DNA of 64,000 bases from Candidatus Woesearchaeota archaeon (lineage in GTDB: Archaea; Nanobdellota; Nanobdellia; Woesearchaeales; WAPY01). A program made the translations under genes and the position numbers. The DNA lies in contig JBNAUL010000002.1 of the NCBI GenBank assembly GCA_049700835.1, forward strand, positions 1 through 64,000, given 5' to 3'. A model generated the notes under the pieces. That model saw nothing but the letters and a program-made list of their open reading frames with translations. It searched no databases and was not told the origin of the DNA. Positions within the stretch are counted from its first letter, which is position 1, and each line of letters starts with the position of its first letter. Positions 16,432 through 57,919 of this stretch are shown here, one piece after another.

Positions 16432-18537
16432 ATGTTTTTTCAAACAGAATACTATAGCCCAATGGACAGGGAATATTTCTCATCAGAAGAGAAGATAGAA
16501 CAGCCATTTGACATTCCTTCAATAAACCAAAATCAGAGTTCTCAGCCATTGATAAGAATGAGTGACATCGGGCAGACAGTTTCAGAAGGACCTCAACTTG
16601 GAACCTTAAAAGACCAGCTTGTTTTGGCAATAAGAAAAGGGGTTGGAAAAGTAGAATTGCAAACAACAATGGAAGGCGCTGGTTATCAGCCAGGAGGCGG
16701 CGGTGCAGAATCATACGGAGTTGAAGACAGGGATGAGATAAGAAAAATAGCAGAGATAAACCAGGTTGAATTGACAGGGGTTCATGCTCCTCCTCAAATC
16801 GCAAACCTTTCAGGTTTGGCAGAGAACAGGTTCAGCGATGAGTTGAGAGAAACACAAATCTCTGAGATAAAAAAGGCAATTGACTTTGCGGCAAGCGTTG
16901 GAGCCAAAGCAGTAACAATCCACACAGGAGAATTTCCAAGACCGATATGGGAAGCTGAGTGGAACAAAGAAGGAAAGTGGAAGAACGCATTCATGACTTA
17001 TGAAGAAGAACCAGAAAAGGCAGCGCATTACTTGGTTGATTCAAAAACAGGAAACATAATCACAGAGGTTGCAAGGAACATCGTTGTTTATGAACCAGTT
17101 TACAAGAGAGCAGAAAAAGACGGGATAAGCCCAAGTGGTAAGCAGATACACAGAGGGGATTACCTTGACATAAACGGAGAACCAACCCAAAATCCTGAGG
17201 ACAGAGTTCCAATAATGATAACAGATAACGATGTTGGAAAGGAAATTGAAGGTCAAAAAATAAATTCAGACATGGTTGGAAAATTCTTAGTGGTTCCAAG
17301 GGGATGGGACTATTTCAAAAGAGAAGCAGAGGAATTCAACAAAAGAAATCCTGGAAGAAAAATCACGCCAGAAGAGATGTTCTACAAAACAAGGTTGGAA
17401 TCAGAAATAAGCCAAATGAAGGGAATGACCTTATACTATCAGGCAGGTTATGAAGAAGCTTTAAAAACAAGAGCAAAGATACTTGATGCTATAAAATTTT
17501 ATGAGGACCTTGAGAAAAAAATACCAAAAGAAGATCTGTGGAAGATACAAGTAAGGAAGAACTACGGGGATTTGCTGCCAGCAGATGTTCAAAACCCAAC
17601 GCAATACTTAAAAGAAAAATTAACTGAAATTGACAGGCATTTGAAATGGACTCATGAAGCTTCTTCATCTTATGAAGCAAGAGCAAAGGAACTTGAGGAT
17701 GCTGCTAAAAGAATAAAACCTATTTCAGAATATGCCAAGGAAAAGAGCACTTACTCATTGGCAGAGTTGGGAATATATGCAATGCAGCAGAGCAAAAGGC
17801 CTGATGTTAAAAAAGACATCTTTATTTCAGCAGAACACATCTTTCCGCAGATGGGTTATGGAAGCCATCCTGAGGAATTGATACAGCTGGTCAAGGAATC
17901 AAGAAACAAAATGGCTGAACTGCTAACAAAAGAAAGAATACCAGACCCTTCTGGAAAAACAGATATTAATGGAAATCCTGTTTATATAAAAAACCCGTTT
18001 TACAAACCAGGTTTGAGCAAAGAAGAAGCAGAGAGAGAAGCTGAGAAACACATAAAAGCAACACTTGATACTCAGCACATTGGAATGTGGTACCGCTACT
18101 TTGTTCCAAAACCAGGAGAAACAGAAGAACAAAGGCAGAAGAGATTCAATGAATGGTATATGGACATGATTAAAAAGATGGAAGATGAAAAAATAATTGG
18201 CAACATACATTTAGTTGACGGTTTTGGAAGAGGGCACACGCATTTGCCTGCAGGGCAAGGGCTTATGCCTGTTAAAGATGCGATAGAATACTTAAAGAGC
18301 AAGGGTTACAAGGAAGCAATTGTCTCAGAAGGTTATGGCATGGGAGCTGATAATATAATAACAGAACCTTGGAGATTGTTTGGAGCAAGCATTTATGCTG
18401 TGAGCCCTGAGAGAGCTCGTTCTTGGACAGATGTTCACCAAAGCTATTTTAACAAGATGCAATCCCCATATTTTATTTTCGGCGCTTATGCTCCTTCTAA
18501 TGAATGGGTTTTGTGGAGTGAGGTTCCTTTTGAGTGA
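16432..18537 (+). CDS. Sugar-phosphate isomerase/epimerase (AP endonuclease 2) family TIM barrel with large insertion
   Basis: Metal-ligand motifs GVHAP, NLSG, IHTG, SAEH, TLDTQH, IHLVD, HLPAGQG and VSEG; roughly 290 aa are inserted between IHTG and SAEH. Confidence 0.8.
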   Translation: MFFQTEYYSPMDREYFSSEEKIEQPFDIPSINQNQSSQPLIRMSDIGQTVSEGPQLGTLKDQLVLAIRKGVGKVELQTTMEGAGYQPGGGGAESYGVEDRDEIRKIAEINQVELTGVHAPPQIANLSGLAENRFSDELRETQISEIKKAIDFAASVGAKAVTIHTGEFPRPIWEAEWNKEGKWKNAFMTYEEEPEKAAHYLVDSKTGNIITEVARNIVVYEPVYKRAEKDGISPSGKQIHRGDYLDINGEPTQNPEDRVPIMITDNDVGKEIEGQKINSDMVGKFLVVPRGWDYFKREAEEFNKRNPGRKITPEEMFYKTRLESEISQMKGMTLYYQAGYEEALKTRAKILDAIKFYEDLEKKIPKEDLWKIQVRKNYGDLLPADVQNPTQYLKEKLTEIDRHLKWTHEASSSYEARAKELEDAAKRIKPISEYAKEKSTYSLAELGIYAMQQSKRPDVKKDIFISAEHIFPQMGYGSHPEELIQLVKESRNKMAELLTKERIPDPSGKTDINGNPVYIKNPFYKPGLSKEEAEREAEKHIKATLDTQHIGMWYRYFVPKPGETEEQRQKRFNEWYMDMIKKMEDEKIIGNIHLVDGFGRGHTHLPAGQGLMPVKDAIEYLKSKGYKEAIVSEGYGMGADNIITEPWRLFGASIYAVSPERARSWTDVHQSYFNKMQSPYFIFGAYAPSNEWVLWSEVPFE

Positions 18538-24763: not shown

Positions 24764-24858
24764 AACCAAATAGAATCAAACCAAAAAAACAATTTTATTC
24801 TCTATTTAGTGATAAAAAAACAAAAAAATTTATAAATCTCGTGTTTTTATTCATTCTT

Positions 24859-27207
24859 ATGGACATAGGACAAAGAGAAGAATACGATAAGAAAATACTG
24901 ATGGAATGCATCAGCGATTTACTTAAAACAAGCAGAATGAAAGAAGAAGGAAAGCATCTGCCGTTAAAAAACATAAAGCAAAAAAATGGGATAGATATTG
25001 GAATTATAGGTTACGGAAAACTTGCAGAAAAAACCATCTCTTACTTGTCGCAACTAAATCACCTACAAATAGGAGAGCCAATAAATGAGATAATTGTTCT
25101 GACAACAGACGAAAAGTATTCTGACCTTGAAAAAAAGGAGAAAGAAATTTCAGCAGAGAACAAAATAAAGATAAGGCCTGTTCTTTACAAGAATGATTCA
25201 ATGTCAGAGTACAGAGATTTTTCAAAAATAAAAGAACTTCTAAAAGCAGACATGATTTTAGTTACTGCAGGGAATGACCCAAAAAATGCTATTTCAAGAG
25301 AGGAATGCATTAATGCAAATCTTCCATTGATAAAAGAAATTGGAAAAAATTTAATGGGTTACAATGGCTTGGTTTTAGTAGCAACGAACCCAGTTGATAT
25401 AATGACTTATGCATTGGCTTCTTCTTCAAAACTTCCATATGATCAAGTTGTTGGGCTGACACAGACAGACACGAACAGATTCAAGTACTACCTTTCAAAA
25501 TATTTTAACATTCCAATGGAAAACATTACTGCTTTTGTGATAGGAGCCCACAACGATACAATGGTTCCATTGCTTTCATATGTAAAAACAAATGGAATAA
25601 GCCTTTTGGATATAATCAGCAATGAAAAATCATTGAAGGATGTAAGAGACATGACAATGGATGTAAGAGACATGACAAGGGACTACGGGCTTTTTTTCAA
25701 AAAAGAAGGAAAAACTCCTATTGACAGCCCTGCAAAGTCGCTTGTTGATACAATAATTGCTGCAGTAAAAGGACTTGGATTGGAAGAAAACGAGATAGTT
25801 ACAACCTCACGATATCACAAAGAGGACGGGATTTTTATAGGAGATGTCACGCTTTTTAAGAATAAACTCCCTGGTTATGACTTATTTGGATTTATAAGAG
25901 TTCTTTTTGAAAAAGAGTATGACTTAAAATTGAGCAAAGAAGAACTCTTAAAATTCAAAAATTCAAAAGAATATGTTAAGAGAACAATCGAGGATTTAAT
26001 AAAACAGCATCATATAGAACCAAACATAACAGAGGTTACAGATCAGACAATAAAGGAAGGTTATGAAAAGTTAATCAGAGAATTGATTTCTGAAAATCAG
26101 GGAAAACAAAACTTAGAAATCATCGAATTGATTGGAGAAAGAAAAGAAAATGAATTTCCTTACAATTTGGATATCATACTCTCTTTTGTAAATGAGGCCT
26201 TGAGGATAAATACAAAAACAAGATCTTTAATACCATTTAAAGAAATCAAAGGAGCGCGCTCAATGAACATCACCCCAGACAAAAAAAAATTGGTTTTCGG
26301 ATGCAAGAATACGATAAGAATATACGATGCTGACACTTTCAAAGAGATTTTGGAAGTTTCTGTAATGCCTAAAATAGAAGAATCTTGCGAAAACAAAAAG
26401 GAAAAACTAGGATTAAACTCAGTTGAATTGATAAGTTTAGACCAAACCCACTATGTTATTTACGCAGCCCGTTCCAACTCAGGAATATTCCAATTTTCCA
26501 TAAAAGATAAAAATATTTTTGATGGAAAAGAGAAGAGGATTGCGCCAAATCAAGAAAAGATTTTGCAAAAAATTACTGAGAATGCAGATCATATTGGGCC
26601 TTTAAAATTCATTCAATGCAATAACAAGGAAAAATCAGAGAACCTTGGTATGCTCTATGCAGCAGTTGATTACATGATTTTGGAATGCGCTCTGAAAAAA
26701 AATCTTGAAACAATTTTGAATTATAAATATGCTACTAACTCATCAAGGGTAAGAAATTTCAAAATTAAAAACAATTATTTAGTCTCCCAAGATAGGGCAG
26801 ACAGAATTGTAGTTTACAACCTTGAATCGAAGAGAATGACAGGAAATTACTATTCAGACAACATTCAAAACATTGAAGCACTTAGTTACGGTTCAGGACT
26901 ATTGCTCGCTTTGAAAAGCACTGAAGGGATTGAACTCTTAAGCTTTGAAGAGCAAAATTATTTCAAAAAGCTTGGAAGTTTTGAACATCCTGAATGCAAT
27001 CTGCTCTTAAAGCTTGCCAAGAAAGGTAATAGTGCAATAATGCTTTTTGCTCTGTCAAACTCAATACTTGCAGCATATCTAATTTCAAAAGATTATTTTA
27101 GAAATCCAATATCTGAAAATAGAGTAAGTGCAAGCTACTTTAACCTGCCGATAGAGATAAACAATAAACTCTTTACAGATGCTGCAATCATTTTAAGAGA
27201 ATTCTAA
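24859..27207 (+). CDS. Lactate/malate dehydrogenase-family domain fused to a probable WD40-like beta-propeller
   Basis: IGIIGYG, ILVTAG…SREECINAN, VATNPVDIMTY, TDTNRF and VIGAHND; C-terminal beta repeats such as SMNITPDKKKLVFGCKNTIRIYDADT and LVSQDRADRIVVYNLES; own TTTATAAA at 24829. Confidence 0.8.
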   Translation: MDIGQREEYDKKILMECISDLLKTSRMKEEGKHLPLKNIKQKNGIDIGIIGYGKLAEKTISYLSQLNHLQIGEPINEIIVLTTDEKYSDLEKKEKEISAENKIKIRPVLYKNDSMSEYRDFSKIKELLKADMILVTAGNDPKNAISREECINANLPLIKEIGKNLMGYNGLVLVATNPVDIMTYALASSSKLPYDQVVGLTQTDTNRFKYYLSKYFNIPMENITAFVIGAHNDTMVPLLSYVKTNGISLLDIISNEKSLKDVRDMTMDVRDMTRDYGLFFKKEGKTPIDSPAKSLVDTIIAAVKGLGLEENEIVTTSRYHKEDGIFIGDVTLFKNKLPGYDLFGFIRVLFEKEYDLKLSKEELLKFKNSKEYVKRTIEDLIKQHHIEPNITEVTDQTIKEGYEKLIRELISENQGKQNLEIIELIGERKENEFPYNLDIILSFVNEALRINTKTRSLIPFKEIKGARSMNITPDKKKLVFGCKNTIRIYDADTFKEILEVSVMPKIEESCENKKEKLGLNSVELISLDQTHYVIYAARSNSGIFQFSIKDKNIFDGKEKRIAPNQEKILQKITENADHIGPLKFIQCNNKEKSENLGMLYAAVDYMILECALKKNLETILNYKYATNSSRVRNFKIKNNYLVSQDRADRIVVYNLESKRMTGNYYSDNIQNIEALSYGSGLLLALKSTEGIELLSFEEQNYFKKLGSFEHPECNLLLKLAKKGNSAIMLFALSNSILAAYLISKDYFRNPISENRVSASYFNLPIEINNKLFTDAAIILREF
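25638..25678 (+). repeat. In-frame 21-bp tandem duplication (DVRDMTM-DVRDMTR)
   Basis: GGATGTAAGAGACATGACAA occurs twice, 21 bp apart. Confidence 0.9.
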
Positions 27208-28309: not shown

Positions 28310-29134
28310 TCATGCCTTTTCATTTCTTTTCTCTTTTTTACCTAATTTTGTTAAACTCCACAAAAGCCAAAAGTATTTTCTGTAAGCGTCAGCCATCTTC
28401 TTGCTTTCTATCAGAATAACCAAAGGAACTTCATCCCAAATCCAAAATGAAACCTTGTTGTCATAAATTGTTGTTGTTGCAGGACTGTTGTACTCTTTTG
28501 GCAGATAATCTGCCTTTGTGTAAGGAAGCTTGTTAAGGTATGCTATTCTTTCTTTTGCGTTTTCATTGTATATGTGGATTTGGGTTATCCTTTTTGAAAT
28601 CCTTCTCTTATGATAATAATCTATGAAGTTTTTCATTCTCTTGCTTATGTCCTTTGGGCAACCAAATGTCAAAACAAAACCATTGTTCTCAACGCACCTT
28701 AGAATGTCCTCAGTCACTGCCTTTACTCCCTGAATTCCTTCCATTAGATGGGCAACATCCCTCTTCTCTGAAAATTTTTTCTTAAGAGAAAGCTCAGGGA
28801 TTATTTGATTAAGTTTTTCCTCTCTTTCTTTCATAACCTGCATTAAAGAAATTGGATCATTTGCTTCAAAATATTTTATCTTATTTTTTATTATGTAGCT
28901 TACAACTCCCTTTTCTATAAGCCTGTTCAATGCTTCATAAACATTTGTCCTGTGAACCTTGCTCTTATCTGCAATCTTTCCTGCTGTGGCAGAGCCGGTT
29001 TCCAGCAAACTGATATAAACTTTTATCTCATTCTTGCTAAAACCCAACTCCTCTAATACGCTTTCATACCTTTCCTTGTTTTCATCGTTGCATGAACTAT
29101 CAACTTCACATTCTTTGCTCATAACAGCATTCAT
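28310..29134 (-). CDS. TrmB family transcriptional regulator
   Basis: LEELGFSKNEIKVYISLL…VHRTNVYEALNRLIEKGVV HTH; C-terminal TIYDNKV effector domain. Confidence 0.9.
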   Translation of the reverse strand: MNAVMSKECEVDSSCNDENKERYESVLEELGFSKNEIKVYISLLETGSATAGKIADKSKVHRTNVYEALNRLIEKGVVSYIIKNKIKYFEANDPISLMQVMKEREEKLNQIIPELSLKKKFSEKRDVAHLMEGIQGVKAVTEDILRCVENNGFVLTFGCPKDISKRMKNFIDYYHKRRISKRITQIHIYNENAKERIAYLNKLPYTKADYLPKEYNSPATTTIYDNKVSFWIWDEVPLVILIESKKMADAYRKYFWLLWSLTKLGKKEKRNEKA

Positions 29135-29254
29135 AATGTTTGTTATTTATAAAATTTTTTATAAAAAACAAAATTTAAAAGCAAATAAAAAATTATGTTA
29201 TCACTTAACAGTAAGTTTTATATAGTAGTTGTTTCTCTGTTAATATAGGGCTAT

Positions 29255-32200
29255 ATGAGCGATATGAGCGAGGATTTATCTCTTCAAATAAAGAGAAAGA
29301 GGAGAATTGATTCTCTTAAATATAGGTACATTTACAATGAGGAAGTTTTTTTAGAAAGCGAAATTCTTGGAGAGGGAGTCTTGGGAATTGTTTTTAGAGG
29401 AAAATATGTGAGCAGGTTGCCAGATACTGTTCTAGAGCGGGATGTCGCTGTTAAGATTCTTGAGCCAAACTTGTGGGAAGACCCCAACGCCCTAAAAATG
29501 TTTTCTGAGGAGGCAAAAAAAAATTGGGATATAATGCAAAAGGTTAAGAGTAAAAATGTTGTTGAACCCTTGCTGGTAAACAATTTCTTCATTAAGGAGG
29601 ATTCAAAACTCATAAGCGTGCCTTTCATGGTTCTTCCATTGTACAAGGGCAGCGTTCTAAAAATAAAGGATTCCTTGACAAGCATGGAAAAATTAAAGTT
29701 TTTAGAAGATGTGGTAAATGGTTTGGCAGAGGTTTTAGAAAAAAGCAATTATTCTCATGGGGACTTGCATCCAGGAAACATATTCTTTGATGGAATTGAT
29801 TTTGCAATAGGAGATTTTGGATTTGCAAACATATCCAAATTGGCAGGAAGCCCTTACATAAAAAAGTCAGGAGAAAAGAGCGCGTATGTCACGACATCAA
29901 AAATGCAGCTGATAGAATTCTTTTTTCCAGACAAGAAGTTGAATTTTGACTACGAGAAAATTGATGTTTACAGTTTAGGAGCAAACTTCATCTACTTGTT
30001 TTTGGATGATGTATTTTCAAGAGAAAAAAGAGATACTTATTCAATAAATCAATTTATAAGAGAAGAAAAACCGGATGTCGGCTACAAAAAAATCAGAAAA
30101 GAATTCATGTCAAGGATGCCTTTCGAGCTTTCCTTCCTTGAGGAGATTATCGAAAAGAGTTTCAATCCTGACGAGAAAATGGTATTCAAAGATGCAATAG
30201 TGATGCGTTCACGCATTCAAAATCTGCTCAGAACATATGACATTGATTATAAAAAAAATTACTTTATAGAAAGATCGATTGAACAAACAGCAAAACAAAT
30301 AGATGAAAAAAGGAAATCTCTAAAAGAATCGTTCAAAAAAATCCTGTTAGGAATTTCAGTTGTAGCCCTTGTTTACGCTCCAATTACGCTTGGAATTTTA
30401 TATTATAAAAATAAACTAGAGAAAGAGCAAAATAACAAGACGCCAACGATTGAGAACTTGTTGGAAAATGATGACACGATATACTCAAATTATTGGGATT
30501 TCAACAAAAAGGTCAAGTTCGCTTTTTCAAGCTCAAGGTGGAATGAAATACTGCAAAAATACAATAAAAACTATGGAGAACTCTTCACCAAAAACCAGAG
30601 TTCAATTTTTGATATAATAACCAATTCTGTTTTGGATGATTGGGAAATAGGCCCTGATTACAATGAAAAAGACAATTCAACATTTCCTAATCCTGTCATG
30701 CTTTTAGAAGATTCAGACAATTATGTGGTATTCAAAATAGTCAAAAACAATGAGACAAAGTTTTTGGCATTAAATATCTCCAAAGAAAAGAAAATCTCAC
30801 TCGCAAAGATTGTAAATGAAATTTACGGCATAGAAGAAAAAACATCATATAATCAAACAAAACCAAACACTAATACCACGACAATGCCTCCAACAGAGAT
30901 AACTACTAATCCAAAAGAAACAAAACCAACAACCCCAACAAACACTACAACTCCTCAAACAACATTGGAGGACCAACTAAAGGAGTTTAACATTGTTGCA
31001 GAAAAGGAAATAAGGTGGTATTCAAAGTATTCAACTATACTTTACTCAGGATTCCTTGAACTATTGAACGAAAAGGAATTCACACGCATTTTATTGCAGG
31101 ACGACTTGAACAAAATCAGGAAATTGATTGACAATTCTTTAGTCAATGGAGAAATAGAAAAGGATTATTTAAACGGAGATTTTGGAAACAAGGAGGTTAT
31201 AAAAAACATAGGCGTTGATTATGAAAAGGGCTTTTTGGTAGTTCAGATAGGCACTGATAAATTATCACAAAAATTGTGCAGTTTTACAATAGGAACAAAA
31301 AACATAGCAGAGATGAATAATCTGCTCGTTTCAAAGAGTTATTATTTCAGGCCAATACTTGATTTGGCGAGCGGTTGGGAAAAGGGTTTTTTTTTAGGAA
31401 ATTATGATGCTGAATATTACATAACAAGAGACGATTTGTCTGCTATTTTGAGAAACAGTAATATTAATCTTGATGAACTATTTAATTCAAACAAACGATT
31501 AGTTTTAGAAAAGATTATGAATGGTTATGATTTTGACGGAGAAGCAAATAGCTTTATTTTGATGGGAAACAATCTCATTACAAATATAACAGGGCCTGAT
31601 TACAAAAAATACAACCTAACCCTTGCAATGTTGCCTGAAAATTCATTTTTACTGAAAAAAGCGATTGACGATTACAAAAATCCTGTTGTTGTTTCTCCGC
31701 AAAAATCAGAAATTCAAAAAACAATTGAAATGTTTGAGAGCTGCCAAGAATCAGTGCAGAATTATCCTAACTATGAGAGCGCGTTGGAGGTAATTCTCAA
31801 AGCAGACTTGGCTCCTTTAAAAAGCGTTCTTACAAATTATTATACGGATATAATAAGTAACAGCAAACTTGAAAGCATTTTGGACATTTTGATGGATTCA
31901 AATCAAGAAAATGGCGAATTAGAGTACTTAGTTGTAACTCAAGGTTCAAATAAGAACCTCCTGGTTTTTTTCAAGAACTCTGATAACAAACTCTATAAAG
32001 GATTTTTAAGTTTGGACAGCTCAACCTCAAACAATCTATACAATTATGCTATTGCCATCAATTATGTTGATTCAATAAAAAACTCGTGGGAGGATTATGA
32101 TTGGCTTTTAAATCCTCAGACAAGGGTTCAGGGAACAAAATGCTTGTCTTTCAAACCAAACAATAAAACAGTTTATATCAATGGTTATTTGTACAGGATG

Positions 32201-32530
32201 CAAGAAGCTCCATTCCTCTACAATGGAGAAGTATATATTTCATTGAGAACAGTAGCAGAGGCATTATTAGCAGCAATAAGCGAAAGGAGTTATGCAGAAG
32301 GATATCCTTATTTTTACAGACTTAAATACAATAATCACACCCATGATTTTTATTTAGGCACAAACTCCTTAATCAAAGACGGTTATAAAATAACGCTGAG
32401 TTCAGGGCTTACTCTTGCTGGAAAAACAGATTCAGGATTTTACATACCTGCAACATGGTTTTGCGATTTGTTCAATCTAAATCTGGTATGGGATTCTGAA
32501 AGGCAAATGTACAATCTTTTTGTTCCTTAA
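29255..32530 (+). CDS. Receptor-type Ser/Thr protein kinase: kinase - TM - large extracellular region - copper amine oxidase N-terminal (stalk)-like domain
   Basis: LGEGVLGIV, VAVKIL, HGDLHPGNI, GDFG, DVYSLG; TM ILLGISVVALVYAPITLGILYY; Thr/Pro linker; C-terminal VYING…APFLYNGEVYISLRTVAEAL…YIP…LVWD; TTTATATA at 29217. Confidence 0.85.
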   Translation: MSDMSEDLSLQIKRKRRIDSLKYRYIYNEEVFLESEILGEGVLGIVFRGKYVSRLPDTVLERDVAVKILEPNLWEDPNALKMFSEEAKKNWDIMQKVKSKNVVEPLLVNNFFIKEDSKLISVPFMVLPLYKGSVLKIKDSLTSMEKLKFLEDVVNGLAEVLEKSNYSHGDLHPGNIFFDGIDFAIGDFGFANISKLAGSPYIKKSGEKSAYVTTSKMQLIEFFFPDKKLNFDYEKIDVYSLGANFIYLFLDDVFSREKRDTYSINQFIREEKPDVGYKKIRKEFMSRMPFELSFLEEIIEKSFNPDEKMVFKDAIVMRSRIQNLLRTYDIDYKKNYFIERSIEQTAKQIDEKRKSLKESFKKILLGISVVALVYAPITLGILYYKNKLEKEQNNKTPTIENLLENDDTIYSNYWDFNKKVKFAFSSSRWNEILQKYNKNYGELFTKNQSSIFDIITNSVLDDWEIGPDYNEKDNSTFPNPVMLLEDSDNYVVFKIVKNNETKFLALNISKEKKISLAKIVNEIYGIEEKTSYNQTKPNTNTTTMPPTEITTNPKETKPTTPTNTTTPQTTLEDQLKEFNIVAEKEIRWYSKYSTILYSGFLELLNEKEFTRILLQDDLNKIRKLIDNSLVNGEIEKDYLNGDFGNKEVIKNIGVDYEKGFLVVQIGTDKLSQKLCSFTIGTKNIAEMNNLLVSKSYYFRPILDLASGWEKGFFLGNYDAEYYITRDDLSAILRNSNINLDELFNSNKRLVLEKIMNGYDFDGEANSFILMGNNLITNITGPDYKKYNLTLAMLPENSFLLKKAIDDYKNPVVVSPQKSEIQKTIEMFESCQESVQNYPNYESALEVILKADLAPLKSVLTNYYTDIISNSKLESILDILMDSNQENGELEYLVVTQGSNKNLLVFFKNSDNKLYKGFLSLDSSTSNNLYNYAIAINYVDSIKNSWEDYDWLLNPQTRVQGTKCLSFKPNNKTVYINGYLYRMQEAPFLYNGEVYISLRTVAEALLAAISERSYAEGYPYFYRLKYNNHTHDFYLGTNSLIKDGYKITLSSGLTLAGKTDSGFYIPATWFCDLFNLNLVWDSERQMYNLFVP

Positions 32531-32544
32531 TCTTTTTTAATCTT

Positions 32545-32808
32545 TTACCTTATCAGAACCCTTGTTCCGATACTCTGCCCAGGCATTCCCTTTTCAAAGA
32601 TAACCCTTAAAGCACCCTTATTTCCATGAACAGACGCTATTTTTCCTTTAATCTCTCTCTGTTTTTTAGAAGGAGTTTTCCAAATTACTTCTTTTCCTAT
32701 CAATTTCATTGCTTTTTCTTTGTTATCAATACCTTCCACTATTATGATTACATGGTTTCCCTTTGTATGGTGCCTTGCCATTCTAAAATTTGAGATTGTT
32801 GCTTCCAT
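32545..32808 (-). CDS. rpl35ae: 50S ribosomal protein L35Ae
   Basis: LIGKEVIWKTP…GKIASVHGNKGALRVIFEKGMPGQSIG; GGTGA SD before ATG 32808. Confidence 0.93.
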   Translation of the reverse strand: MEATISNFRMARHHTKGNHVIIIVEGIDNKEKAMKLIGKEVIWKTPSKKQREIKGKIASVHGNKGALRVIFEKGMPGQSIGTRVLIR

Positions 32809-33189
32809 GATTTCACCGCGCTGCTTTTGCACTGCTTTTGCAATTCTTTTTAAATTCTTTTAAGATTTAAATACTATTTTGGGATAATAGGAATATTTAA
32901 AAAACTTTTGTTTATTACCATAGTTGGCAAAGTTGATAAAGCTTTGTTTTCAAAGGCTTAAAAATTAGATTGGTATTTTATATTTTTATGAAAGATTGGT
33001 TAAATTTAAATTAAAAGTAGATAAAAATAATTACACTTAGATTATCAGACAGAAAAATAAACTCTTTAGCTTAAGCAGAATTTGACCTATAAGACTACAC
33101 TCTAAAGGCAGTCAAACTGTAGATGGTCAGACTGTAATTTGGGCGCAAATCATACTTATAACGAATTAAAAGGTTGCGAGAATTAAATT

Positions 33190-34007
33190 TTGAGTACTGG
33201 ATTGCAGAGGAACATAGAGGAGATTATAGAGGACATAAAAAAAGAGGAGAGAACTGCTCTCCATAAAGGCTGTGGACCTCACCAAATATGAAATAGGGCT
33301 AAGTGGAAATCAGGAGATAAGTTACAGGGTCATAAATCCCATAGGGGGAGCGACGAGCAGAGCTATTTCATAACCGACTATAACAGCAGAAGAACCATTG
33401 ACCTCTTCTAAGAACAAATTATACCTCAAACGACGGCACCAAAGTGCCCTACAAGGGACTCTACCTCGTAGTGTTGAAGGTGCCGCTCTTGGGAAAACAG
33501 GCAGCGCTAAAATTTTGGGATGTGGAGAAAAAATGACAGCAGCTGATTGCGTCTCTCTGGAAACGAACGAGCTGGCTGAGGAGCTCCTCTTTCTTGACTT
33601 CTTCAAACACTTTGCATTAGTAATTTACAGGGAAGAATCTTCGCGCTGAGCAAGCCAGCAGGAGATTCCTACCAGTCACCGAAGGCTTTGAATGCTTTGA
33701 ATGTTTTGAAATATTCTCTGCAAGGTGGACTCTGGACTTAGGAGAAGAGCTCAAGCGGCTTGAGAGCATATACATCCTCAACAATGTTGACAAGATTAAA
33801 AAGTTCTCAAACAAATATTTCAGCAGAGAAGTCAGGAGGAGAAATATGGAGAGGGCGGAACTTGAAAGGATAGTTGTGGAGAATCCCGAGTTCACATTTG
33901 CAGTTTACAGAGAACTGACTCCTCTTCAGAGACCCGTTAGAAGGCAGCCTTATAGGAAAGCTCCACACGAGCTCAGGCAGAGAAAAAAAACGCTGCAGAA
34001 GTCTTAA
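33190..34007 (+). pseudogene. Heavily decayed coding sequence of unknown origin
   Basis: Visibly GC-richer than its flanks; protein-like fragments in shifting + frames (ELLSIKAVDLTKYEIG, GTKVPYKGLYLVVLKVP, ELAEELLFLDFFKHF, LERIVVENPEF) separated by stops and frameshifts. Confidence 0.45.
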
Positions 34008-34274
34008 GCTTTATTGCCTTGCTCCACTCTCATTTTGTTTAGATGCAATTCCAGATACAATAATAAAGTTATGCTTGATTTCCTAACACGCTTTTAAAAA
34101 TATTTATCAAGTTTGTAAATAAGCTTCTTATAAAGATATAAGAACATAACAACAAAACATTTAGTAATTGTTATAGTTTTCAGATATTTGGCCTAGGAAA
34201 AACAATTTTATGGTATTTTTATCACTACTTAATAACAAAAATGAAAAGTTTTATATATCAGTTATGCAAGCCAT

Positions 34275-56185: not shown

Positions 56186-57919
56186 TTAAGTTGTTTCACA
56201 CAAATTTGTTAATATTAAAAATACAGGCTCGTATGTTTTCCTTTCTTTTTCTTCACTGATTATTCCGCAGGACTTTTTATGTTCCAAAAAATAATTAAAG
56301 CTTTCAATTTCTGGTTCAAACAATTGGTATGCAGAATTTAACTCTTCATCATGCTTAATCTTGTTCTTAATCGATTTGTACAATAAATCGCCTTCTTCCA
56401 AAAATGCTGAACAGGGATTAAACTTTTTTGAATTAATGATTTTGATATTGGATAAACAGTATGATTGTACAAATTTCAAAAACAAAACAGCGCTGCAAAA
56501 ATCATTCCCACTAAATTCTTTATTGAAACTATACTCAATATTTGAATCTCCAAGCAGTCTAATCATTCTTTTTAAAATTTCATGAGTGGAAACAAATCCG
56601 ATATGCGCTTCTGACAAGTTTAGATAGTAATTGAAATCATTGTTCTCTCTAAAAGAATCCAATTTAAGGCGTAGTTCTTCGTGCTGTTTATCGCAGTTTG
56701 CTTCTATCAATTCTATTAATTCCTCAATTTTGGGAAATTCAACAATGCTTGCTATTTTAAAGCATTTTGCCTTCTCTTCGCTAAAATCAAGATTTATCAA
56801 TTGTTCATACTCAGGTTTTAAAAGATTGAATTTTGGCTCAAATGAATTTTTGCTTAACAATCCTTTAAAGTCCTTAGCATCTAATGCTTTGTATAGTTCT
56901 CCCAATTTAGGGATTATTTTTTTGCTCTTTTCCAAGTATTCTGCCAAAACATCGCTTTTATTTCTTGTTTTAAGATTTTCATAAACATTATAGCCTGCAA
57001 GGAAAATATCGCTCAAAGGTTCTTCAATATTTTCTATTTTGTATGGATTTGATTTTCCTGAACTATACTTCTTGTATGTTGAACCGCTTTTCTGTTCTTT
57101 CTCTTTTTTCTTTTCTTTTATGTATACTCTATGAATTTTTTCTTCTAACTCGATTATGTTATCAAGGATTCTTGCAGCAATCTCTTCGTCATAGTCCTTA
57201 TTATCGCAATCCCAACAAATTTTTAGAATTTGGTCAAATTCCTTTGGCGCAGAAGGATTAATCTCGTAGAATTCCTTAATCAATCTTTGCTTTGGCTTCT
57301 TGTTTGTAAGAATTTCATAAATCAGGTCTCCAAGCTTGAAAAGATCATGGGTTTTTGAGACCTCTTCTTCTTCCTCATATTCGTAATCTCTGCTTGGAGA
57401 TTTTTTTATTTCTGGCTCTAAACTTGACAGGTTGAAGTCAATCAACCTTATGCTTAAATCTTCAGCTTTTTCATAATCTAAAACTAAAATATTGCTTGGT
57501 TTCAAATCTCCGTGATAAAAACCCTTTGAATGAACATATTTTAAGCAGTCAGTTATTTCCCTAATAATCTTCAAGGATTTTTCAGTTTCGATGAATGTTT
57601 TATCATTCTCGCATTCTTTTATTATATTCTTCAGCGGTTTTGAATTTTTTGGATACTCAAGAATTAGCGCTGGCAAATCGTTGATTTCGCAAACCCCATA
57701 AAATTTTAGCAGTTTTTCATAACTTCCTAATCTTTCATATGTTTGCGCTTCGCTCCAAATCAAGTTTTTGTTTTCTTTTTTTAATATCGTTTTTACAGCG
57801 ACTTCTACGCTGCCGAGATTGTAGCTGTAAACCCGAGAGTAAAAACCTTCTCCAATTATCTTTTTGTTGGAAGTTAAGTAATCTTCTAATTTCTTTTTGT
57901 TTATTATAAAGGCAGCCAT
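56186..57919 (-). CDS. Ser/Thr protein kinase with C-terminal helical domain
   Basis: IGEGFYSRVY, VAVKTI, HGDLKPSNIL, LIDFN, DLFKLG. Confidence 0.87.
   Translation of the reverse strand: MAAFIINKKKLEDYLTSNKKIIGEGFYSRVYSYNLGSVEVAVKTILKKENKNLIWSEAQTYERLGSYEKLLKFYGVCEINDLPALILEYPKNSKPLKNIIKECENDKTFIETEKSLKIIREITDCLKYVHSKGFYHGDLKPSNILVLDYEKAEDLSIRLIDFNLSSLEPEIKKSPSRDYEYEEEEEVSKTHDLFKLGDLIYEILTNKKPKQRLIKEFYEINPSAPKEFDQILKICWDCDNKDYDEEIAARILDNIIELEEKIHRVYIKEKKKEKEQKSGSTYKKYSSGKSNPYKIENIEEPLSDIFLAGYNVYENLKTRNKSDVLAEYLEKSKKIIPKLGELYKALDAKDFKGLLSKNSFEPKFNLLKPEYEQLINLDFSEEKAKCFKIASIVEFPKIEELIELIEANCDKQHEELRLKLDSFRENNDFNYYLNLSEAHIGFVSTHEILKRMIRLLGDSNIEYSFNKEFSGNDFCSAVLFLKFVQSYCLSNIKIINSKKFNPCSAFLEEGDLLYKSIKNKIKHDEELNSAYQLFEPEIESFNYFLEHKKSCGIISEEKERKTYEPVFLILTNLCETT

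Follow-up and report, generated by a model that had tools for sequence, protein, structure and literature searches.

How does an archaeon with a small genome come to encode a single protein that begins with a Hanks-type kinase and ends in a bacterial-type surface domain, and what might such a protein sense? DPANN archaea are generally regarded as living on other cells to which they attach, and we know of no described mechanism by which they sense such contact. The gene studied here lies in a 64,000-nucleotide stretch of DNA (the window) from a hot-spring Candidatus Woesearchaeota archaeon, a member of the DPANN with a genome of 1.07 Mb. All parts listed in the original prediction, namely, a kinase domain, one transmembrane (TM) helix, an ectodomain of about 700 amino acids (aa), a Thr/Pro linker, and a terminal domain, were recovered where it had placed them (Table 1). 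Taken as a whole, the gene product is probably a lineage-restricted, single-pass, receptor-type Ser/Thr kinase. A conserved kinase of this type with a bacterial-type tip offers a concrete protein to test for partners and would represent a foreign surface domain re-used in an archaeal signaling receptor; on its own, it is a domain-combination variant whose value is that of a lead.

Table 1 Features of the kinase locus (positions in the window)
Feature	Position	Strand	Evidence
TrmB-family HTH regulator (274 aa)	28310..29134	-	PF01978, E 2.8e-18, 66 bits vs 25.6
Conserved intergenic block, TATA-like box ~30 nt before kinase ATG	29196..29225	+	G000/G001 comparison
Whole receptor-like kinase gene, 1091 aa + stop	29255..32530	+	ORF; full-length homolog P0002, 60% identical
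Hanks-type (ePK) kinase domain, aa 35-277, putatively cytoplasmic	29357..30085	+	PF00069
Single transmembrane helix, aa 363-384	30341..30406	+	Kyte-Doolittle maximum 2.33
Membrane-proximal ectodomain module M1, alpha/beta, aa 396-540	30440..30874	+	AF2 model
Thr/Pro-rich linker, aa 541-575	30875..30979	+	21/35 residues T or P
Distal orphan ectodomain modules M2-M4, aa 576-944	30980..32086	+	Sequence and fold searches
C-terminal two-repeat Cu_amine_oxidN1 (stalk)-fold domain, aa 945-1091	32087..32527	+	PF07833, BLASTP, fold match
Ribosomal protein L35Ae, convergent downstream neighbor, synteny anchor	32545..32832	-	PF01247, E 2.6e-16

Integrity and genomic setting of the gene

The window is of archaeal lineage, carrying genes for eIF6, prefoldin, S19e, L31e, L35Ae, and Cbf5, and the closest FtsZ genes are those of Candidatus Woesearchaeota MAGs. 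The host genome, which is 98.7% complete, was itself derived from a metagenome, and a misassembly could in principle have fused the kinase part of the gene to the part that bears the stalk. The unitigs listed for run X1 leave two short intervals unbridged (30178-30201 and 32232-32378). However, a unitig of 2,030 nt from the same run covers positions 30202-32231, corresponding to aa 316-992 from the TM helix into the stalk, with all 30 depth bins covered and no joints reported. Unitig pieces were also retrieved at ≥99% in runs of two studies, and the GC content is even along the gene. The runs listed as containing the stretch include none of RNA. In addition, the homolog P0002 (1,100 aa) displays the same full architecture on a separate, independent contig of 84 kb. 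Synteny is conserved at both ends of the gene in a genome of the same genus (G001; the present genome is G000), where an N-terminal piece of the homolog adjoins the TrmB gene and a C-terminal piece adjoins the genes for L35Ae, which follows it as in the window, and MBL. Together, P0002, the G001 synteny, and the bridging unitig largely refute a chimeric assembly, which we consider extremely improbable.

Kinase domain and membrane topology

When the domain was scanned in isolation, it matched the Pkinase profile PF00069 above the cutoff (E value of 1.7e-11; 44.4 bits versus 31.7) over aa 35-277 and profile positions 4 to 221 of 263, and a six-frame search of the genome yielded 44.6 bits. The typical motifs are found in GEGVLG (aa 39-44), VAVK (64-67), HGDLHPGN (168-175), GDFG (186-189), and DVYSLG (237-242), upholding the predicted Hanks-type kinase. 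The best solved relative by sequence is RAF1 (3omv; E value of 3.4e-5).

Ser/Thr kinases share the consensus catalytic loop HRDLKxxN and an APE motif. Neither occurs here in canonical form, as the Lys of the loop is replaced by His (HGDLHPGN) and FPD (aa 224-226) stands at the position of APE. These replacements, together with an hmmscan of the full-length protein that listed no Pkinase match and only weak matches to ABC1 and APH, would fit a structural, adhesin-like surface protein in which the kinase-like domain serves as an inactive scaffold (pseudokinase). Such a role is very unlikely, given that the G-loop, the beta3 Lys of VAVK, the HxD Asp and catalytic Asn of HGD..N, and DFG are kept in all five homologs (34 to 65% identity). 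Moreover, active APH- and ABC1-type kinases have a loop of the form HGDLHPGN. Judged from its sequence, HGDLHPGN is a variant loop in which the catalytic residues are kept, and the kinase domain appears catalytically intact; the loop His and FPD could nevertheless make its activity or substrate class atypical.

Hydropathy analysis revealed above-threshold 19-residue windows spanning aa 359-384, within which the helix was set, and no other 19-residue window above 1.6 in the whole protein. C-terminal to the helix follow 707 aa. From the hydropathy profile, and because a kinase requires ATP, we infer that the kinase domain faces the cytoplasm, with the rest of the protein outside the cell. The charge bias flanking the helix is modest, and the predicted outside part holds 12 of the 14 N-x-S/T sequons and all four Cys residues. 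The topology as first proposed thus stands for its single hydrophobic peak and the long stretch beyond it, whereas its orientation is inferred.

This layout, in which a cytoplasmic Hanks-type kinase at the N terminus is followed by one TM helix and then by a series of small extracellular modules, resembles that of the bacterial receptor Ser/Thr kinases of the PknB/PrkC type (Stk1 family, PASTA ectodomain), and the PknB/Stk1 equivalog NF033483 aligns with aa 39-193 at an E value of 7e-11. However, its 41.8 bits lie well below the cutoff of 450 and the Pfam scan gave no PASTA domain, and a PASTA-kinase identity was rejected. The present protein also differs in its orphan ectodomain with a stalk-fold tip, in its HGDLHPGN loop, and in its host, which is an archaeon; we know of no murein wall in this organism.

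FHA and PP2C_2 domains are common partners of such kinases. Neither was found in the host genome, which sets the protein apart from archaeal Hanks-type kinases such as those of the Sulfolobus Arn network, to which it is otherwise similar in being an archaeal ePK-type kinase, some of these being membrane bound according to a review (PMC5007285). The original view that a PknB-like topology is uncommon in archaea is weakened by that prior description of membrane-bound archaeal Hanks kinases and by Pkinase matches in 150 of the 151 genomes of the order, many of them in long frames. In the literature searched, no archaeal kinase with a Cu_amine_oxidN1 domain is described.

Ectodomain modules and the stalk-like tip

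The C-terminal part is built from an alpha/beta module, a Thr/Pro spacer, three orphan modules, and a diverged two-repeat Cu_amine_oxidN1 fold, an arrangement that is conserved across relatives. The spacer extends over about aa 535-575 and is found at the equivalent position in P0002 and in the homolog from genome G003. The latter protein follows the order kinase, TM helix, M1, and Thr/Pro linker, after which come at least two units that each comprise a module and a stalk-like domain.

Apart from the tip, the ectodomain is an orphan in both sequence and fold. An exhaustive phmmer search with aa 389-940 retrieved P0002 and P0004 as its only relatives, apart from four weak matches (E values of 3e-6 to 7e-5) to EF-hand/DUF7507 repeat proteins, which arose through many repeats and were judged spurious. 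A search of the ESM Atlas with aa 389-944 gave no usable match. For M1, an AF2 model was obtained with a mean pLDDT of 75.4 and a pTM of 0.70; its best Foldseek match against the PDB had an E value of 0.2 or worse, and a wide search returned PCNA-like rows with a VIA Z score of at most 3.9, leaving M1 with no assigned fold. Confidence is low for the M4 model (block-mean pLDDT of 39 to 67), and no PDB match at an E value of ≤0.001 was found by Foldseek for M4 modeled with the stalk. While BLAST of the ectodomain against itself detected no internal repeat, hhalign comparisons among M1, M3, and M4 (E value of ~1e-3; probability of 15 to 27%) are suggestive of a weak homology among modules M1 to M4.

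The tip, in contrast, can be assigned. A profile search of the C terminus with PF07833 scored above the cutoff (E value of 1.1e-8; 35.4 bits versus 24.2) over aa 960-1008 and profile positions 49 to 97 of 108, and the homologs P0002 and P0004 reach 36.3 and 32.8 bits, respectively. Two tandem repeats of Cu_amine_oxidN1 are present, in agreement with alignment A3. The AF2 model of the tip has block-mean pLDDT values mostly between 85 and 93, with dips to 69 to 75 in three 10-residue blocks. Its residues 180-260 (aa 994-1074) match domain D1 of E. coli amine oxidase (1d6u_A residues 7-80) with a Z score of 10.6 and an rmsd of 1.8 Å over 74 aligned residues, the next row having a Z score of 5.0. 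Likewise, the tip profile retrieved only amine oxidase from the PDB (E value of 6.6e-4). The terminal PF07833 fold that had been proposed is therefore borne out by both the profile score and the model.

In its fold, Pfam score, and two-repeat layout, the tip resembles the PF07833 stalk domains of E. coli amine oxidase (D1) and of Firmicutes surface proteins and wall hydrolases. It differs from these in being strongly diverged, with only half of the Pfam profile matched and some canonical motif residues (P-x-R, G, W-D) lost, and in its position at the C terminus of a kinase receptor rather than at the N terminus of an enzyme or within a hydrolase. The host, an archaeon, is a further difference.

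Distribution, origin of the tip, and possible signaling role

Homologs of the kinase were detected in 3 of 41 relatives, each a member of the family of the present genome (f1). Word-based searches with the full-length protein, the C-terminal 151 aa, or the kinase region returned only P0001, P0002, P0003, or P0004, and the only sequence relatives among proteins of 600 to 1,910 aa are P0002 and P0003. A P0001 pattern scan of the genome contigs gave 27 matches, from which no relative was confirmed. PF07833 itself occurs in 3 of the 151 genomes of the order and in 10 of the 401 genomes of the phylum, the latter including the present genome and all four other f1 genomes. Each of the five sampled f1 genomes encodes a canonical stalk-domain surface protein, which in the present genome comprises 1,067 aa (G000:C2, L091 1078..4281; PF07833 E value of 7e-53) and has orthologs in G001, G003, G004, G005, G089, and G405. 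Like the kinase, it is a single-pass surface protein with the same narrow taxonomic range and a two-repeat stalk domain (pairwise E values of 3e-8 to 4e-6). However, its stalk domain comes directly after a TM segment at the N terminus, a kinase domain is absent, and outside the stalk domain the two sequences are unrelated. Both repeats of the kinase tip align with this same-genome copy over 109 aa with 24% identity (BLASTP pairwise E value of 3e-8), and identities to the G003 stalk-like units and the canonical archaeal copies range from 19 to 26%.

A bacterial-type domain gained by horizontal transfer had been put forward to explain the tip. Since PF07833 is rare in the lineage of the host, at both the order and phylum levels, a foreign and ultimately bacterial origin is plausible. 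In contrast, a recent graft is not supported by the sequence comparisons, because the tip shares only 24% identity with the canonical copy of the host genome and neither word-based nor exhaustive searches yielded a close bacterial relative. The source of the kinase tip could be either the canonical protein or a bacterium. As all five f1 genomes carry the canonical stalk protein, the immediate donor was possibly the lineage itself. Most likely, a bacterial-type domain had entered the lineage at an earlier stage and was later taken up there as the tip of the kinase.

The shared domain raises the possibility of an interaction between the tip and the stalk domain of the canonical 1,067-aa protein, or between the tip and the cell's own envelope. 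The kinase would then report on the surface apparatus of its own cell and not on a foreign ligand. The two proteins have no segment in common other than the stalk domain, the kinase was found only in a family in which all sampled genomes encode the canonical protein, and PF07833-type domains can self-associate, as an annotated domain of this type mediates homodimerization in a Paenibacillus SOD (PMC10432803). However, co-occurrence in one family is expected from shared descent alone, and G004 and G005 carry the canonical protein, with no kinase homolog found with this query. A homodimer prediction for two copies of the stalk-like domain (alignment A3) scored 0.00 against a mark of 0.42, which speaks neither for nor against binding. 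Altogether, stalk-to-stalk pairing is unlikely.

Alternatively, the tip could dock on a bacterial-type cell wall, either peptidoglycan or a wall polymer, with the kinase reporting contact with a bacterial host or prey. PF07833 is rare in the phylum and, in the domain architectures displayed in one study (PMC3901451), appears beside SLH, LysM, and PG-binding domains. In addition, some small-genome Woesearchaeota and Pacearchaeota have been hypothesized to be episymbionts of bacteria (PMC8204110). A search of the 98.7%-complete host genome for SLT and LysM, the markers behind that hypothesis, yielded neither. Furthermore, the tip lacks the motif residues mentioned above, the searches gave no close bacterial relative of it, and we found no literature that shows the domain itself binding wall material. 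Wall docking is hence quite unlikely, and the sensing of a bacterial envelope, as originally suggested, finds no support in terms of binding and is speculation.

Returning to the receptor-type kinase favored here, the kinase domain would reside inside the cell and the remainder outside, with the distal modules and the tip kept at a distance from the membrane by the spacer. A surface component of the own cell or of a partner cell, on contact with the tip or a module, may change oligomerization and lead to trans-autophosphorylation, after which the signal would pass to cytoplasmic targets. An obvious candidate is the divergently encoded TrmB-like regulator. More specifically, the tip and the giant canonical stalk-domain surface protein might form a matched contact-sensing pair of one woesearchaeal family, in which attachment, possibly to a bacterial wall, is converted via Ser/Thr phosphorylation to the TrmB-like regulator. 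This scenario is a long shot; if true, a ligand-anchored receptor-kinase pathway would have been proposed for the first time in a DPANN archaeon, and there would be a molecular handle on its partner.

The divergent TrmB-family gene predicted next to the kinase is indeed present, 120 nt upstream, and its product has a TrmB-type winged-helix N-terminal domain (PF01978 above the cutoff; Table 1). Its scores for the NCBIfam TrmB equivalogs are far below the cutoffs (37.8 versus 600), so sugar sensing is not implied for this neighbor. The divergent pairing of the two genes is absent in G003 and recurs in the same-genus genome G001. Between the paired genes, a short intergenic block is nearly identical in the present genome and G001, whereas its flanks are divergent. 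The block occurs once in the window and may constitute a promoter or an operator.

Architecture of the receptor-like kinase

The ORF encodes a protein for which the original prediction had described a kinase domain, one transmembrane (TM) helix, about 700 aa outside the cell, a Thr/Pro linker, and a terminal stalk domain (Cu_amine_oxidN1, PF07833), a layout that Pfam, hydropathy, and a fold match all confirm. The outer-part pieces, including four modules (M1 to M4), were delimited by eye and by homologue alignment.

The receptor-like kinase ORF (window coordinates) and the pieces of its predicted outer part
Feature	Position	Strand	Length
Receptor-like kinase ORF	29255..32530	+	1091 aa
M1	aa 396-540		
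Thr/Pro linker	aa 541-575		
M2	aa 576-692		
M3	aa 693-814		
M4	aa 815-944		
Stalk-like domain	aa 945-1091		

Pkinase was absent from the full-length Pfam scan, in which only weak ABC1 and APH matches stood in its place. This miss is a filter effect, because PF00069 scores 44.4 bits (cut-off, 31.7; aa 35 to 277; E = 1.7e-11) when the N-terminal 362 aa are scanned alone and 44.6 bits at the same position in a six-frame genome search. The NCBIfam PknB/PASTA kinase model matches aa 39 to 193 (E = 7e-11), although its 41.8 bits fall far short of the cut-off of 450. By sequence, the closest relatives of solved structure are eukaryotic kinases (RAF1, 3omv; E = 3.4e-5). The motifs GEGVLG, VAVK, HGDLHPGN, and GDFG are kept in all five homologues (database proteins P0001, P0002, and P0003 and those of a same-genus genome, G001, and a same-family genome, G003), and DVYSLG is also present in the kinase. 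HGDLHPGN forms the catalytic loop, in which His stands at the Lys position of Ser/Thr kinases, and FPD occupies the APE position.

The hydrophobic segment at residues 363 to 384 (Kyte-Doolittle maximum, 2.33) is the sole stretch above 1.6. If the ATP-dependent domain lies inside, 707 aa lie outside. This predicted outside part, divided by the linker with its 21 Thr and Pro residues, holds 12 of the 14 N-x-S/T sequons and all four Cys. Apart from the stalk-like tip, the ectodomain is orphan. M1, M3, and M4 show weak mutual kinship (hhalign E values of 0.0007 to 0.0017; probability, 15 to 27%), and BLAST found no internal repeat in the ectodomain. When aa 389 to 940 were queried with phmmer against 1.84 billion representatives, just six proteins were returned at an E value of ≤0.001, of which P0002 and P0004 are real matches; the other four (EF-hand or DUF7507) were rejected as weak, repeat-driven matches. 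The M1 model (pLDDT, 75.4; pTM, 0.70) has no convincing structural neighbor (best Z score, 3.9; Foldseek E value, 0.2 or worse), and the ESM Atlas gave no match for the ectodomain.

At the C terminus, Pfam places PF07833 at aa 960 to 1008 (E = 1.1e-8; 35.4 bits; cut-off, 24.2). An AF2 model of aa 815 to 1091, built from a six-row alignment, has a mean pLDDT of 70.4, with block means mostly between 85 and 93 in the stalk part (dips, 69 to 75) and between 39 and 67 in M4. Foldseek returned no match for this whole model at an E value of ≤0.001. A Foldseek-independent structure search aligned 74 residues (model residues 180 to 260) with residues 7 to 80 of the Escherichia coli amine oxidase 1d6u_A (Z score, 10.6; root mean square deviation, 1.8 Å; next row, Z score of 5.0), and the profile of A3, an alignment of the domain, retrieved nothing but amine oxidases from the PDB (E = 6.6e-4; residues 7 to 82). 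These matches demonstrate that a PF07833-like fold is present.

Integrity and distribution of the gene

The join between kinase and stalk is not a product of chimeric assembly, a reading contradicted by P0002, by synteny at both ends in G001, and by a metagenomic unitig. P0002 (1,100 aa; 60% identity over 99% of the query), whose gene sits on an 84-kb contig, shares the layout of kinase, TM, modules, linker, and stalk. In G001, where contig ends interrupt the gene, the N-terminal 492 aa of the homologue adjoin a divergent TrmB gene and the final 56 aa adjoin the L35Ae and MBL genes, as in the window. The stretch also occurs in Logan contigs of two runs from two studies, labelled hot springs metagenome; in run X1, possibly the source sample, a 2,030-nt unitig spans 30202 to 32231 (aa 316 to 992), each of the 30 depth bins has coverage, and no joints are reported, with 30178 to 30201 and 32232 to 32378 unbridged by the listed pieces.

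The protein is a genuine receptor-type Hanks kinase that bears a stalk-fold tip and is both conserved and lineage restricted: of 41 relatives, 3 were found to have it (the host genome, G001, and G003), all of one family. The G003 homologue (G003:C50, L007:1354-2970; 34% identity), whose gene crosses a 100-N scaffold gap, contains at least two tandem units of an orphan module plus a stalk-like domain, which indicates that the ectodomain is modular and variable in length. Pkinase matches occur in 150 of the 151 genomes of the order (124 above the cut-off), many in frames of 500 to 1,200 aa; this tally includes the unpublished-flagged G116, G125, and G136, and leaving them out gives 147 of 148. 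In a review, archaeal Hanks kinases are drawn as membrane bound or cytoplasmic (PMC5007285).

Origin of the stalk-fold tip

The host genome (1.07 Mb in four contigs; 98.66% complete) carries archaeal markers within the window (eIF6, prefoldin, S19e, L31e, L35Ae, and Cbf5). PF07833 is found in 3 of 151 genomes of its order and in 10 of 401 of its phylum, 9 of them above the cut-off: the host, all four other genomes of its family, all three f85 genomes, and two others. Within the host's family, PF07833 picks out a canonical two-repeat domain directly after the TM of a large surface protein, which in the host (1,067 aa; PF07833 E = 7e-53) is encoded outside the window, at L091 1078..4281 (G000:C2, about 318 kb). 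Beyond the stalk domain, this single-pass protein has a weak TSP3-like motif and then a long stretch without annotation. Every sampled genome of the family has an orthologue, and orthologues are also present in a second Woesearchaeal family. The protein has the stalk domain alone in common with the kinase. In BLASTP, the two stalk domains align over both repeats (109 aa; 24% identity; pairwise E = 3e-8), and A3 agrees.

The stalk-fold domain of the kinase is old and diverged, and a paralogue within the same lineage may have been its immediate source. The PF07833 domain terminates an S-layer-like protein of Syntrophomonas (PMC3582634) and mediates homodimerization of a Paenibacillus superoxide dismutase (PMC10432803), and one account of architectures lists it with SLH, LysM, and peptidoglycan-binding domains (PMC3901451). 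A literature search for "copper amine oxidase N-terminal" and "archaea" found no paper on an archaeal protein, and "copper amine oxidase" was absent from the 12 of 505 matching papers that were listed when the domain was combined with DPANN terms. Castelle et al. suggest, from murein transglycosylase-like proteins, that some small-genome Woesearchaeota may be bacterial episymbionts (PMC8204110). Searches of the host genome did not find FHA, PP2C_2, SLT, or LysM. The original prediction of a chimeric sensor of a bacterial-type envelope stands in part: the tip is probably of bacterial ultimate origin, and its recognition of a bacterial envelope is speculative.

Genomic surroundings

As predicted, the kinase has a divergently transcribed TrmB-family neighbor, 120 nt upstream of it. 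The intergenic region contains a 30-nt block (29196 to 29225), nearly identical in G001, with a TATA-like box preceded by the word TATCAC, which may resemble a half-site of the Thermococcales TrmB operator. Downstream, about 0.9 kb (33100 to 34020) has a GC content of 0.42 to 0.47, against about 0.33 for the genome, and sits in a 1,442-nt ORF-poor gap between the L35Ae and MBL genes, whose spacing in G001 is only about 205 nt. This segment is single copy and gave no Rfam match at an E value of ≤1, and its short ORFs match no Pfam family. A second, canonical Hanks-type kinase (56186..57919, minus strand; 577 aa; Pkinase E = 1.4e-24) has no TM segment and no Pfam family in its C-terminal region of ~330 aa. 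Upstream, a 788-aa frame (24841 to 27207, plus strand) encloses a malate/lactate dehydrogenase-like domain (aa ~124 to 387) between extensions of no known family (~120 aa N-terminal and ~400 aa C-terminal), and a 701-aa ORF (16432 to 18537, plus strand) matches a xylose-isomerase-like TIM barrel at aa 537 to 635.
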